27,837 bases of DNA from the IMG/VR virus record IMGVR_UViG_2537561944_000027. The stretch is one strand, 5' to 3'. A program made the position numbers. Below are positions 9,001 through 15,000 of this stretch, in pieces; positions within the stretch are counted from its first letter, which is position 1; each line of letters starts with the position of its first letter. Origin of the DNA: a virus (Duplodnaviria; Heunggongvirae; Uroviricota; Caudoviricetes).

Positions 9001-12000
9001 TGCAAAGAACCCCTTTATATGTGAAAGTGATAACTAGTGTTGAAGCAGTTTTATGCTTACGAATAGTTACTCCTCTTGGCAGAGATAATAATCCTTGTTC
9101 TTTCTTGCCCATTTTGAAACCTCTATTAAGTCGACCCAACGCTCTTTAACCCCGTCGACTTTTAATACATGTACCCCTTCTTTCCATATTCCTCTTTGTA
9201 TCCGTTTGTTAACGGCATCAACCGTTTCTCCCGCGTTGCGGCAGTAGGTTGATATAGGTACGCAATCCAGCCCCACAGTTCACCTCACACAACATTCAGC
9301 CCACGACAGTGACACCACACTTCAAACATTCGTTTCACAATTTCACGACAGTAGAAACCGTCAACATCTCGCGTCAGGTCATAGCGATTGCCGAATGTCT
9401 TGCGAACCCATAACTCAAAAACCGTATGCATGTATCACCTCCGTTGCATTGCGCGCAATTTTTTCAGGTGCTTTTCCTGCTCAGTGTCCGCCAGGATTTT
9501 GCAATACTGCTGGTGGTCAATATGTTCGAACAGGCAGTTGAACTCACCAATGCATACCCGCCCGGAGTGTCCGTCCATACGTCGAAAGAACACAGAGCGG
9601 TCCGTACAGCGAGTAATCACCACAGGGTATCCGGCCCTGTCCGTGTATATTTGCCCGCGTTGAATAAGTGCGAACATGAGATTATCCCCAGCGGCAAATC
9701 GAAAAAATAATCAGCGCAATCGATATTGCAACACCTACAATTGCAAATGCTTCAGGCCAACTCATTGACTCACCTCCTGCGGCGGTTCTGGTAGAGGCAT
9801 CCAGTGGGTTACATCGCATTCAGGGATGCTGATATCATCACCAAGCCACCCTTGACCTTCAGACCAGCATTGCACGTAATACCCGTATTCTGTGTTCACT
9901 ACGCACCACTGTGCGTCGTTCGGCATTAGCTCACTACAGCTTATCCAACCATCCGGAGTTACCGGAACTTGCGGAATGGCTGTCTGCTCTCGAACGTCAT
10001 TAGGCGCTATAGGTTCTGCTGCCAACTGACTGGCATATTTGTTAATGGTAACGATAAGCTCTTGCTCAGCCTCATCCAGATAATCACCGATACCTCGCCT
10101 GTCACCGTCAAAATCATCGAAATCGGCACGAATCTTGGCAACCTTCTGGATTGCGGACAACACCTCACTAGGAATTACCGGATAGTTGGTTGACGTTTCC
10201 GCGATTTCCCGAAAATTATTGGTTGACGAATTCTTATTTTCCCGAAAGTTTCTGGCCTGAAGCATGGCGGCGCGGCAGGCATTCCAGCCAGTAGCGTAAT
10301 ATTTCGCATCCTGCCAGCTCGTTTGTACATTTGAGTACGCTTTTTCCTCTGTCATGGCCTCTGGTATTGATGCCGGTGCAATTCGTGGCAGGCCGATATA
10401 TAGTGGTACATCTCCCGGCTCCATCGAATTGACGGGCCAAATATACGCATCACTACCATGGTTAATGAGCGCAATCCCCGAAGTATCGATGATGCCAAAT
10501 GGCTCCGCTGTCAATGCAGTCAATGCAATTTCATAAGCCCGACGCTCAATATTGTCTCGCACGTCCAGGCTGCTTATGCGCTCTTTGATTTCTTTAATCA
10601 GTTTCTTATCGGTGAAAGTGGTCATCTCACTCTCCTTTGATGCGAATGCCAGCGACGCGTAGTGCGTGTTCTAAGTCAATCAGGCAAAGCCAGCTGCCAT
10701 TTTCTTTAGGTATCATGACATGTCGCTTATCAGCATTTATTGGGTGCCCATATCGAAGGTCGTAGCGAGTCGGTAATTGAACTTCCCTCGCTTCCAGTTC
10801 TGTAATGCGTTTGTTTTTAGCTTCTAGTTCATCCAGCAGCACCAGCACAACCTGCGGTGTGACTTTCATACGAAACGCAAGCAATTTTTGCGGCGTTGCC
10901 ACGACTTTTATTGCTTCTGCCGCCTCACGCAGTGCCTGATAGTCAATCTTGCTCACTGGTTGCCTCCTTTACGGATCTGCGCTGCGATGCGCGAAAAAAA
11001 GCCTCCCGCGTATGGCTGTTAAGAGCTGGCGCGAACGCCGCGTTAAGAACGGCAGCATCACAGCCGTCATCGATATAGAGCGCAATTTTTTTCTCCAGGC
11101 GCGCTTTGGCTTCCTGCAACTGCATACCCCGGCACGCACGCGGGATATAATCAGCAATTTGAGCGATAGCTTTTTCGTTCTGTTTAAACATGCTTCACCT
11201 CGATAGGCTTGATGGTGTCTAACAGCAGTCGGCGGCGCGTATTTTCTGCAAAATGGCGGCGTCCAGTTTCTTTGTGGTAAAACTCGTTTTTGCCAACGAC
11301 CCACATCCGCTCTGTTTGGTGCAATTTTTTTACCTGCGGGCCATCTTTGGTGATCACGGTACCGGTATGGGTTTTTACGATTGTCATGCCACGACCTCTT
11401 CGAATTTCAACTCCAATTGGTCACCCCAGATTTCACATGATTCGGAACACGAACCAGTATCAAACCGCTTGGCCAGCACCATCGCCTGATACAAACTTCT
11501 GTAGTCGCTGTCGGCATACATTCTGGCAATCCCGTCAAGCGTCAGGTGACCACGGTACATAACGTCTTTACCTGTTCTGCGATGACCATCCCTGACGTGT
11601 TTGCCTGTAACCAGTTCATTAAAAACCCGCATCAGACCAGGTTCGTCTTTACATGCAAGCCCCAGCTTTTGCGTTGACTTTTTGATGCAAAAAACACAGT
11701 TCCCGAGGTGCTCCGGGATTTGCAAATCAAAAGGTTGTTTTTGCCACCACCGGATAACATCCGACTTATCAAAATCTGACAGCTCGGCAAGATACCGGAC
11801 GCCAGGTTTCGGTTTCAGCCTACGGGGTTCGTCCGCACGAATACCGAGCCATGTGATGTAATTCCCTCGCCCAAAATGGTCATCGCAATATTTCGTGAAA
11901 GGGGTGAGTTTTAGCCTGTCAGTACAGAATGCGCCGCCGATGTATGGCGTACCGTACTTTTTAACCATGTCCATAAACGGTTTAAGCACCGGCATTCGCG

Positions 12001-15000
12001 TCTGAATATCCTTTGGTTCCCATTCCGTATAACCATTTGGCTGCCCAAGCTCTGGATTTATATCGACCTGCAACACAGTTAGCGGTATGCCCCAGAACTT
12101 CAAAACCTCCCGAATAAAGCGGTATGTCAGCGGATGTTCGCAACCGGTATCCATAAAGATGTAGCAGACGTTATTGCCAGCCTTTCTTTGTTCTTCCATC
12201 AGGTGAACAAGATATGCAGATGTTCTCCCGCCAGAAAAACTAACTACATGAGTTATGCACATTTGCGTAATTCCGATAACTCGTTGAAGCGTTCCATAAA
12301 CATCCCGTAGGCATGGCCCGGTGCCAGTGGAATCACTTTGAACATCTCTGTTGCCGGGATACCTTCCAATACAGGCCAGAAAGAGCCATCATCAAGTCCG
12401 AGATCGCGGCGTTCGGTTGCCAGCATGATGAGATCGGCATATTTCACTGGCGTGCTCATAACAGGAGGTAACCCGTATTTCTCACGGATTACGGCGTCTA
12501 TTTTTTCTTCCATCCGTTTATAGTCAGGAAGAAGTCGTTTCAGTGGCGCGGGGATGTCCTGGCAATATGCTTCTGTTGCATCATGCATTAACGCTTCAAA
12601 AGCAAATTCCTGCGGCACCAGCTGGCTGCAAAGCACCGCATGCTGGGCGACACTGTAGAAGTGTGAAAGATGTCCTGCAAAGCGACAGATATTTGAAAGG
12701 GAAACTGCGATATCGTTAATCACGATGTCGTCTTTATTTATCTTGTCATAATAAAAATGCTTCCCGGAAAAAGTTTTAATAAATGACATTTCGTTCTCCA
12801 CTTTATATGCGCTGCACCGCGCTGAATTCTGCTAAAAGGAAGCTCTCACCATCCGGTGATTATTGAGTTAATTACGTTTCCATAAATGCCCCCGCAGGGG
12901 CATTTGCAGTAATGAAATCAGGCGGTGAAAGTACCAATAAAGGTTTCTACTTTGCTGTCTTTGAATTTCTCAACAAGCAGATCACGAAATTCGTTAGCCA
13001 TTTCTTCCTGCATCGCTTCCAGCTGAATAATGCGCAGAACCAGTACAGGACGATCGCCAGTGATAATGCTGAGGCGTAATTTAAACGGACGTTCTTTCAG
13101 GCCTTCAAACGGAACGCATTTAAATTCAAATGCCACTGGCATAATGTCTTTGGTCTTCGCTTCGACAGACTCCATCAGGGAGCGTTTGCCGCTGAAGTCA
13201 TTGTCTTCAAAATCAGCGGTCTGGTTTGCTTCAATTGTGATTTTACGGACTGCCGCAGCCGCTTTGGTTGCCTGAATGGTGTCACCATTAGCATCAAAGC
13301 CCACAAGGTAGTCGGCCCAGTCTTCAATCCATTCTGCCAGTGACTTCTGGGAGTTACGCTCGCCATTAACAGACAACAGAGCAGAAAACGGTGCTGTCTT
13401 TTTCAGTTTGAGGGTGGCGGTGTTATCTGCGTGACCTGGTTCATCAATAGTACCCAGGTTAAGCACACTGACGGCTCGCATATTATCGGCATCGATAAAG
13501 CAGCGGGTGCCTTCATCTGCAAGATCTTTAGAATAACGGGTAAAGTCATCGATGCTGGCAGTGGAAAGCGCACCACGGAAACGGAAGCGATTTAAATTAA
13601 ATTTTTCCAGATCATGAATGCGGAAATTCTCAGGCAATGCCACAGCATCGGCACCAATATTACTGATAATTTCATTAACACCCTGAGCAGAAATAAGGGC
13701 ATGGATTTGATTAATTGCGGTTGCGTCTAAGTTCTGAGACATAATAAGTCCTCACTATATAAAGATATTCAGTGATGAGATAAATAATCAGTTAATTAAG
13801 AACGATATTAATGACCTGCTGCGCGGAGTTTTCCGTCAGGTTCACCGGCAAGAGTCAGTAATTGTCCCTGGTCTTCCTGCAGAATAGTCAGTCGACCACC
13901 GCGATTGACATACATCGGCGTTTCGGTGGTGTCTTCTTCGGAAATTTTCCCGCGGTTAGTCGGGCGAACATATGAGAGTTTGTGTTTGATTTTCACACGG
14001 TTCTCATCAAACGGTTCGATTTCCAGGTTGAGCGAGACCTTACCTTTGGTTTTCGTGTTCATCACACCGGAAGCGACTTCACTGAGAACTGCGCCGATTT
14101 TGGTTTCAAATACGCCGCCGTCCAGCTCCCCGATAAATGCCTGCACATCAGTACTGCGTTCGCTAGCCATTTTGCTGCTCCTCATCATATCGACCCTGCA
14201 AGGTCGGTTGGTTTCTCCACAAAACAGAGAAGAACACCTGCGGTGGCAGCCGCCCGGCTGGATTGGGTTATGAGCCCGTCGTCCGGTGATGCTCTTCTCT
14301 GTTTTGTAAAAAGAGCGGTACCAGCCGGAAGCAAGTGTACAAACTGGTACCGCCAAAGCAGTGGCTGTTGTGGTGGGGTTGTCACTCAGGCGTATGGTCA
14401 ACCTGACAATCCGGTGTCCTCAACGGGGAAAGAGTAACCCCGCCATACTTACCGCCGCGCCATTTCGCGGATTACCACAACGCTGAGAGCACTTAGCAAG
14501 TTACGGCACCACACTTTGTCGCGGTTCCATAAATGCCCTCATCGTTGCACCCTGGTCTCTTCCCAGGCGTCAAACCGGATCGCCGCGCTGGTTAGGCGTC
14601 TTATCAGCATCATCATTGACTTGCACATTCCGGCTACCTGGTTTTTTTGCCCGAGCAAGGAGTGGATTGTCCCCTTTAACGTCCCCAGACCGCTAACGAC
14701 GCATGTGCCATACGCCGTGTTACAACCAAATTTTGTTTAATCTTGCCTGCGGCATGTTTCTTTTAGATACATTATGTATCTCAAGGGTACATTGTCAAGT
14801 ATAAAAAAACCTGCCGAAGCAGGTTATAAATATTGATTAGGCCTTTATTTTGTATCTTCTTGGTTTTCCTGAGAAAATTACTGTACCAATTATAGAGCAA
14901 TTACCGTTAATCTTAATGTAAGGCTCAGGCCAGTTTGGGTTTAATGCTTTGAGATAACGCTGTGTTCCATCTTCTATCAATCGCTTGAAGGTGGTTTCGC

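Follow-up and report, generated by a model that had tools for sequence, protein, structure and literature searches.

The early-left genes of an O26:H11 prophage

The locus described here lies in the window, by which we mean the full 27,837-nucleotide (nt) stretch of IMG/VR record IMGVR_UViG_2537561944_000027, and comprises yfdP, yfdQ, yfdR, and a gene for a PP-loop protein that is a homologue of phage lambda NinC. An initial annotation of the window had placed four genes between positions 11384 and 14170 and had described them as phosphoadenosine phosphosulfate (PAPS)-reductase-like, HD phosphohydrolase, DUF2303, and YfdP-like. A listing of the open reading frames (ORFs) confirmed four minus-strand ORFs at exactly these positions, and the four family assignments hold, with matches to phrog_424/PF01507, phrog_318, PF10065, and phrog_204, respectively, at E-values that rule out chance:

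11384-12262, minus strand: NinC homologue (PAPS-reductase-like), 292 amino acids (aa); PF01507 and phrog_424
12253-12789, minus strand: yfdR (HD protein), 178 aa from the ATG at 12789, or 182 aa if translation starts at the GTG at 12801
12918-13742, minus strand: yfdQ (DUF2303), 274 aa; PF10065 and phrog_210
13808-14170, minus strand: yfdP, 120 aa; phrog_204/PF27127; the first gene after the leader

The surrounding 7.3 kb are 100% identical to the chromosomes of Escherichia coli O26:H11 and relatives (e.g., strain 11368), in which RefSeq names the products "phosphoadenosine phosphosulfate reductase family protein," "yfdR 5'-deoxynucleotidase," "yfdQ YfdQ family protein," and "protein YfdP." We read the locus as the stretch of the pL operon nearest to the promoter, in a lambdoid prophage of the CPS-53/SfV/mEp460 type carried by enterohaemorrhagic E. 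coli O26:H11; it is already annotated, very common E. coli prophage DNA and represents no new kind of system. YfdP, YfdQ, and YfdR are 99.2, 98.2, and 98.9% identical, respectively, to the proteins of the K-12 prophage CPS-53, and between the PP-loop protein and lambda NinC (NP_040635, 290 aa) the identity is 79% over 290 aa. The initial annotation had the family names right for the yfd genes and was correct in calling the PP-loop gene PAPS-reductase-like, but it missed both the near-identity to the K-12 genes (98-99%) and the kinship with NinC.

The closest known system is the yfdP-yfdQ-yfdR-yfdS-yfdT block of CPS-53 (KpLE1) in K-12, which shows the same gene order, the same strand logic, and the same 10-nt overlap at the yfdR stop codon. 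Relative to CPS-53, the NinC homologue here replaces yfdS, and all that is left of yfdT is the 42-residue beginning of a 287-aa DUF551 chimera further downstream. Unlike CPS-53, the prophage in the window still possesses a repressor gene as well as cro, Q, and an O-like gene for replication.

Modularity of the gene neighborhood

Two sets of loci were used to evaluate the gene contexts: a close set of 80 IMG/VR contigs with a 99-100% identical yfdQ, in which the neighbors were located by tblastn, and a cross-species set of 80 loci, one genome per GTDB species, with YfdQ identities of 41-98%, whose ORFs were scanned with profiles. The order YfdP>YfdQ>YfdR was recovered in 79 of the 80 close loci, with the slot after yfdR occupied by YfdS in 52, by NinC in 7, and by neither in 20. 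Across species, a YfdP homologue lay directly upstream of YfdQ in 75/79 loci, a YfdR homologue followed within 1.5 kb downstream of YfdQ in 55/77, and a NinC-family gene occurred within 6 kb of yfdQ in a single locus out of 80. The YfdP-YfdQ pair was likewise intact in all seven diverse phages inspected (Citrobacter phiNP, Shiga toxin 2a [Stx2a] phage P13374, Pseudomonas LPPA56, Vibrio D93, Vibrio 44E38.1, Xanthomonas CP2, and Acinetobacter Mystique), and YfdR joins it in two of them. Part or more of a 1.4-kb yfdR+NinC query matched 3,044 of 5,426 complete E. coli genomes, the yfdR+NinC junction being present in 282; the yfdR-NinC order was also found in one Atlantibacter prophage. What emerges is a mosaic locus in which yfdP and yfdQ form an obligate pair, yfdR is a frequent accessory gene, and NinC is an unrelated cassette. 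The proposal that the four genes form a functional cluster does not survive these counts, NinC being an independently mobile cassette found in 1/80 of the cross-species yfdQ neighborhoods and 7/80 of the close E. coli relatives.

In Stx2a phage P13374, from the O104:H4 outbreak, the yfdP homologue (positions 4558-4934) is split into overlapping 63-aa and 45-aa ORFs, which suggests a frameshifted gene; no yfdR follows yfdQ in this phage.

YfdR and the initiation of host replication

YfdR matched phrog_318 ("deoxyribonucleoside 5' monophosphate phosphatase") at 5e-111 and PDB entry 2gz4 at an E-value of 1.9e-13. The H...HD...D signature is conserved (AQH, MHD, QD, YAD), with H50, H69, D70, and D119 aligned with the HD residues of 2gz4. 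At the family level the scores are lower: the Pfam YfbR-like profile (PF12917) gave 24.2 bits (E = 2.9e-5), just under its gathering threshold of 25.9, and the YfbR equivalog NF003009 gave 19.9 bits against a cutoff of 122. YfdR thus shares the HD fold and the metal-binding residues with E. coli YfbR; unlike YfbR, it falls below the family cutoffs, reportedly has a much lower affinity for nucleotides, and binds DnaA. As the HD residues are intact, a weak phosphatase activity on deoxyribonucleoside monophosphates (dNMPs) may persist in YfdR.

Experimental information comes from the K-12 proteins. Noguchi and Katayama isolated yfdQRST as a multicopy suppressor of over-initiation; yfdQ, yfdR, and either yfdS or yfdT were needed, and yfdP was dispensable (PMC4776307). 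Purified K-12 YfdR binds domain I of DnaA, with Phe46 important for the interaction, and competes for DnaA with both DiaA and DnaB; multicopy yfdQ and yfdR together with yfdS or yfdT inhibit initiation at oriC in vivo, and extracts likewise inhibit oriC replication in vitro (PMC4776307). In the same paper, where Zimmerman et al. (2008) are cited, YfdR's affinities for nucleotides are given as far lower than YfbR's, and the function of YfdR is called "elusive" (PMC4776307). This published work on DnaA binding and oriC inhibition was overlooked when the role of the genes was first described as not established.

The conserved YfdP-YfdQ pair

YfdP matched phrog_204 at 1.2e-49, and its relatives all carry the precomputed PF27127, by way of whose annotation it is assigned to that family. 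YfdQ matched PF10065 (DUF2303) at 1.4e-91 over profile positions 2-269 of 269 (306.9 bits against a gathering threshold of 26.6) and phrog_210 at 1e-119. It also matched PDB entry 9o7m, "YfdQ Protein" (E = 1.5e-44; ~35% identity by eye), in which a YfdQ homologue makes up 36 chains; as their lettering starts at C, chains A and B must be something else. The CP2-like podophage MET23-P3 of Xanthomonas has a gene to which the 9o7m sequence is 98.8% identical. A search of the literature for the entry's identifier found no publication on it, YfdQ goes unmentioned in a preprint that presents the cryo-electron microscopy structure of PhiXacm4-11, a CP2-like phage, and the neighboring CP2 proteins ORF38 and ORF36 are absent from the PDB.

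Structure searches were run with AlphaFold2 models by using a Foldseek copy of the PDB that extends to April 2026 and does not have 9o7m among its entries. Against this copy the YfdQ model (mean predicted local distance difference test [pLDDT] score, 76) had no fold match at E <0.1, and the YfdP model (pLDDT, 72), which consists of a long helix and a three-stranded sheet, had no significant match. The best that searches with the two models returned were weak NTF2-like or curved-sheet matches (E of 0.008 or worse), and a BFVD search with YfdQ recovered solely DUF2303 relatives, some of them from actinophages. PADLOC gave no match for YfdP, YfdQ, or YfdR. Overproduction of YfdQ in K-12 leads to plaques of a resident phage (bioRxiv 10.1101/413146), and a mild sensitivity to methyl methanesulfonate (MMS) and H2O2 is reported for strains deleted for yfdQ.

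The PP-loop protein belongs to the lambda NinC family

The PP-loop protein is homologous to lambda NinC over its full length and has the PP-loop (SxGGxxS) and the cysteines of the lambda NinC family (phrog_424/phrog_33262), matching phrog_424 at 7e-94. An exhaustive search recovered 1,657 representative proteins at E ≤0.001, of which 114 scored at ≤1e-30, and the motifs are invariant or nearly so in 36 full-length relatives with identities down to 28%. The family-invariant positions are S10, G12, S15, E42, C113, K118, R142, D144, E145, R148, N188, C189, K195, C272, and C276, and the conserved segments include GIRxDExxR, G187-N188-C189-x-x-C192, and C272-x-E-S-C276. This pattern would fit an ATP-pyrophosphatase-type enzyme with an Fe-S cluster, as in DndC or the thiolases of the TtuA/NcsA type, with the four to five conserved cysteines probably serving as the cluster ligands. 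A weak profile match was obtained to the [4Fe-4S]-dependent U34 tRNA thiolase 6scy (E = 0.2), and the NinC profile also finds two of its motifs, the PP-loop region and GNCxxC, in PDB entry "21fy" (PptA), on which a literature search found nothing.

The match to PF01507 (PAPS_reduct; E = 9e-9) covers the N-terminal ~70 residues alone, and the nearest solved sequences, those of the PAPS and adenosine phosphosulfate (APS) reductases, cover residues 4-70. The CysH equivalog NF002537 gave 19.4 bits against a cutoff of 154. The catalytic motif of the PAPS/APS reductases is a C-terminal ECG[LI]H; the NinC homologue sequence has no ECGxH motif, and its tail reads GSCSESCE. Among the defense proteins in the PADLOC library, the best matches were SspD, BrxP, and DndC, the first of these at 2.9e-15 with residues 5-148 aligned to positions 2-121 of the 277-position model. 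This bears out the originally proposed kinship with DndC-type enzymes: NinC belongs to the same superfamily as DndC, SspD, and BrxP and shares with them an N-terminal nucleotide-binding loop and conserved cysteines. However, the DndC equivalog TIGR03183 gave 14.8 bits against 290.4, and unlike in the Dnd and Ssp systems, there is no adjacent DndA, DndD, or DndE and no SspA, SspB, or SspC partner; the neighbors are yfdR and small phage ORFs. Judged by its sequence features, NinC is a family of its own, neither CysH nor DndC. It shares the PP-loop and the cysteine motifs with lambda NinC. In lambda, ninC is found between ninB and ninD as part of the rightward nin region, whereas in the window and in Stx2a phages the gene is in the early-left operon.

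Domain fusions were found in 6 of 99 near-full-length representatives, all to N6-adenine DNA methyltransferases (five Dam and one of the D12 class, at either end), and no other fusion partner occurred among these 99; the fusions tie the NinC family to DNA. Vibrio phage 44E38.1 encodes a PAPS-Dam fusion, p0018, whose PAPS domain is 56% identical to NinC over 283 aa; the similarity spans the entire PAPS-like domain and includes the GNCVFCIKK and GSCSESCE motifs. p0018 has a C-terminal Dam domain, whereas NinC in the window stands alone and a separate Dam gene is present at 20305-20991; the Vibrio phage also carries the yfdP-yfdQ pair. Transfer of a two-gene segment with p0018 enabled a sister phage to multiply on a host with Dnd (Piel et al., bioRxiv 10.1101/2021.05.05.442762), and a 2026 paper lists phage PAPS reductases among candidate anti-defense genes. 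NinC-type proteins are not discussed in the reappraisal of Dnd by the Aravind laboratory (PMC10853773) or in the paper on the anti-Dnd protein JSS1_004 (PMC12345140). NinC is probably an anti-restriction cassette; we would also entertain, tentatively, a DNA modification made by NinC-type enzymes that works together with adenine methylation.

The Dam genes of phages mEp460 (9276-9929) and cdtI (8418-9116) are labeled "phosphoadenosine phosphosulfate reductase" in RefSeq. The likely source of this mislabeling is phrog_424 (460 positions), which merges the Dam and PAPS halves of the fusions; NinC itself matches positions 163-433 alone.

Organization of the early-left operon

The sequence features around the four genes are as follows:

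14837-15511, minus strand: cI-type repressor (LexA/S24 peptidase family, ymfK-like); PF00717 at 1.5e-26; RefSeq "ymfK: LexA family protein"
14808-14825, minus strand: terminator of the repressor gene, from the terminator scan; precedes the pL-like promoter
14771-14798, minus strand: pL-like promoter (TTGACA-16-CATAAT), an 11/12 sigma-70 consensus match with a putative promoter function
14765-14781, minus strand: perfect 17-bp palindrome AGATACATAATGTATCT overlapping the promoter; unique, with 0.02 expected by chance
14171-14765, minus strand: leader of 595 nt between the promoter and yfdP
12884-12905, minus strand: GC-rich stem-loop AAATGCCCC-TGC-GGGGGCATTT, read from the sequence, 13 nt past the yfdQ stop codon
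11184-11387, minus strand: 67-aa ORF, downstream continuation of the operon
10943-11191, minus strand: 82-aa ORF, downstream continuation of the operon
10627-10956, minus strand: Ead/Ea22-like ORF, downstream continuation of the operon
9762-10625, minus strand: 287-aa ORF with a YfdT-like N terminus and a DUF551 C terminus

The repressor gene marks the immunity region to the right of the operon, and the layout, with the repressor gene, terminator, promoter match, and leader upstream of yfdP, is consistent with an early-left operon, the position claimed for these genes from the start. The leader contains no coding-strand ORF of at least 40 aa, and its RNA is strongly structured, with a fold z-score of -4.15 and none of 100 shuffled sequences folding as well. 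Rfam gave no match in the leader or anywhere else between 9 and 16 kb. The prophage is without a recognizable N gene. For the related phage LLS, which lacks N, put-RNA antitermination has been suggested (PMC12315714); by analogy, the leader could possibly act as an HK022-like put-type antitermination element.

The genes had also been described as tightly packed and translationally coupled. This is correct at the yfdR/NinC junction, where the genes overlap by 10 nt (ATGTGCATAA), but not at the other two of the three junctions: the yfdP-yfdQ gap is 65 nt, and the yfdQ-yfdR gap is 116-128 nt and holds the GC-rich stem-loop, which the terminator scan did not call because of its weak T-run and which is possibly a partial terminator or an RNA-stabilizing element. 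Tight packing starts at yfdR and continues via NinC, which joins the 67-aa ORF in an ATGA overlap, into the 67-aa and 82-aa ORFs. The profile matches across the downstream ORFs (9762-11387, minus strand) are phrog_1226, phrog_1344, PF13935, and PF04448, and over its first 42 residues the 287-aa ORF shares 81% identity with K-12 YfdT.

The replication module and O-only lambdoid phages

The replication module carries a single replication gene:

19029-19847, plus strand: O/DnaD-like replication gene (HTH_36 and DnaD_N)

It is followed (19844-24280) by PerC, Dam, a LexA-like gene, RusA, KilA-N, DUF968/HNH, and Q, and the replication module of the window has no helicase or helicase loader. Phages mEp460 and cdtI show the same layout, with a single O/DnaD-like gene and no loader, and the same is reported for LLS and 34 of 314 lambdoid phages, whose replication is described as "not yet understood" (PMC12315714).

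A conceivable explanation is that YfdP-YfdQ, with or without YfdR, constitutes the missing replication-takeover apparatus of these O-only phages, which have a protein that binds the origin and neither a helicase nor a loader. In covering the face of DnaA domain I to which DnaB and DiaA bind, YfdR would, beyond silencing oriC, free host DnaB and the replisome or redirect them to the phage origin. The yfdQ-bearing multispecies loci with enough flanking sequence (n = 65) were analyzed in this regard by scanning the ORFs of at least 150 aa within 6 kb in the rightward operon. HTH_36/Phg_2220_C initiator-type matches were present in about half of the 65 loci, lambda-P matches numbered only three, and no DnaB- or DnaC-family match occurred within 6 kb in any of them. 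YfdR-positive and YfdR-negative loci did not differ in the loader-less pattern in this comparison, which ignores kinship. Shared ancestry of the phage backbone explains the pattern equally well, and yfdP-yfdQ also occurs in phages with their own helicases; we consider this explanation improbable.

Functional interpretation

The interpretation that we favor, with a probability of roughly 0.6, is a composite one in which YfdR and YfdQ take over host replication, YfdP and YfdQ form a conserved pair, and NinC is a separate DNA-directed cassette. On induction, YfdR would bind domain I of DnaA at the Phe46 surface used by DiaA and DnaB, and YfdR and YfdQ, with a DUF551/YfdT-type partner, would damp initiation at the host oriC; the initiation role was demonstrated by overexpressing the K-12 proteins, which are 98-99% identical, and we infer the role in the phage phase. 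YfdP and YfdQ, an obligate pair in many phages of Proteobacteria that often stands beside genes for the single-stranded DNA-binding protein (SSB) and recombination, would from this context act somewhere in DNA replication or repair. The NinC cassette, which takes over from yfdS at precisely the yfdR stop codon, would most likely modify DNA or evade phosphorothioate-dependent restriction.

Several points weigh against this composite. The initiation block was seen upon multicopy overexpression, a possible artifact by the authors' own concession, and deletion of yfdQRST had no initiation phenotype (PMC4776307). The yfdS gene, which is required in K-12 unless yfdT is present, is replaced here, and the sole YfdT-like candidate is the chimeric DUF551 ORF ~760 bp downstream. 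The YfdP and YfdQ models match no solved fold significantly. For NinC, the Fe-S binding and ATP pyrophosphatase activity are predictions from motifs, and the Vibrio transfer involved two genes and a PAPS-Dam fusion in which the share of the PAPS domain was not isolated (bioRxiv 10.1101/2021.05.05.442762). Lambda ninC is nonessential, and no known experiment ties lambda-type NinC to any phenotype.

Two alternatives concern the yfd genes. The nucleotide-pool manipulation suggested in the initial annotation would make YfdR chiefly a 5'-deoxynucleotidase that reshapes the dNMP and deoxyribonucleoside triphosphate pools for the phage or against nucleotide-based defenses, with its neighbors assisting. 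The intact HD metal-binding residues, the PHROG and RefSeq family names (dNMP phosphatase and 5'-deoxynucleotidase), and the relationship to YfbR (2.9e-5 with the Pfam YfbR-like profile) are in its favor, but the YfbR equivalog score of 19.9 bits is far from 122, PADLOC does not match YfdR, the nucleotide affinities are much below those of YfbR according to PMC4776307 (citing Zimmerman et al. 2008), and a specific protein partner, DnaA, has been demonstrated (PMC4776307). We regard it as the weaker reading and as unlikely. It is also distinctly unlikely that YfdP-YfdQ, with or without YfdR, is an unrecognized recombination or single-stranded DNA module that stands in for Red/Erf-type functions where canonical recombination genes are absent. 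The pair does sit at the position of the lambdoid recombination genes and, in Vibrio 44E38.1, Xanthomonas CP2, and Stx2a P13374, has SSB, exonuclease, Erf, or RecT genes next to it; the 36-chain assembly deposited for the YfdQ homologue recalls the large homo-oligomers typical of annealing proteins, and the reported mild MMS/H2O2 sensitivity of yfdQ deletion mutants points the same way. Those same three phages, however, already have complete exonuclease/annealase/SSB sets, neither sequence nor fold similarity links the proteins to the Rad52, RecT, Erf, or Sak4 families, and early-left operons commonly contain the three-gene set whether or not they also have a canonical recombination module, a hidden recombinase having been judged unlikely on this account (PMC12315714). 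A cryptic recombinase was dropped as the leading explanation on account of the co-occurrence of the pair with complete recombination modules.

The remaining alternatives turn on NinC. If all four genes formed one integrated anti-defense operon, YfdR might, for instance, supply or remove a nucleotide substrate for DNA modification by NinC, and the 10-nt overlap between the yfdR stop and the NinC start and the recurrence of the yfdR-NinC order in 282 E. coli genomes and one Atlantibacter prophage could be cited for it. Yet K-12 yfdS overlaps yfdR identically, so the overlap is a property of the junction rather than a sign of partnership; NinC is missing from 79/80 cross-species yfdQ neighborhoods and 73/80 close relatives, its place in lambda, O276, and Oslo is the nin region, and the NinC-type gene of Vibrio 44E38.1 is 6 kb away on the other strand. 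Such an operon is very improbable, and the anti-defense idea, as first put forward for the module, is reasonable for NinC alone, given its 56% identity to the PAPS domain of p0018 of Vibrio 44E38.1, which lies on the two-gene segment that conferred Dnd resistance, and not for the four-gene set. That the PP-loop protein is an auxiliary metabolic gene product, a genuine PAPS/APS reductase boosting sulfate assimilation by the host, we hold to be extremely improbable. The PF01507 match, the APS/PAPS reductases as nearest solved sequences, and the PHROG category "auxiliary metabolic gene" speak for it, but the similarity to the reductases is limited to the N-terminal ~70 residues around the nucleotide-binding loop, the ECG[LI]H motif is absent with GSCSESCE as the tail, the fusions are solely to DNA methyltransferases, and the CysH score of 19.4 bits against 154 argues against a place in core sulfur metabolism, the finding that the initial annotation had named as one that would overturn its proposal.

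Other features of the window

A low-GC (32-35%) two-gene island at 1019-4487 (plus strand) encodes a HEF_HK + HATPase_c kinase-like protein and a Response_reg_2 protein (PF19191/PF19192). It is flanked by an insertion sequence (IS) remnant of the IS3 family and by a pair of integrase genes (5012-6289 and 7937-9139); a DUF4760 gene occupies 6546-7487. PADLOC gave no match for the island, which looks like a candidate conflict or defense system on an integrative element. An IS3-family (IS600-like) element at ~16350-17600, with transposase ORFs at 16373-17191 and 17227-17529, truncates a ymfL-like gene (15834-16349); the insertion is absent from strain 11368. Within the rightward operon, isrK (18020-18096) and a C4 antisense RNA (18121-18208), both on the plus strand, lie inside a Rha/Ash-family gene (17660-18811) and constitute an antisense immunity element of the P1/P7 type. 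Three tRNA genes (24783-25031), the small RNA (sRNA) STnc100 (25144-25352), and the anti-GcvB sRNA AgvB (25353-25412, minus strand) lie downstream of Q and upstream of a SASA/NanS-p esterase gene. No stx genes are present in the window at 24783-25412, the position of stx in the Stx phages.

Implications

Part of the 1.4-kb yfdR+NinC query occurs in ~56% of complete E. coli genomes. The binding of DnaA by YfdR has been studied solely in a dead prophage; in the O26 type, where the genes for immunity, replication, and late regulation are retained, this interaction is open to direct testing. YfdP-YfdQ is an obligate and widespread early phage pair, and a multichain structure of a homologue now exists. 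For lambda NinC, the kinship with an anti-Dnd determinant of a Vibrio phage, the fusions to adenine DNA methyltransferases only, and the conserved set of cysteines make an experiment definable.

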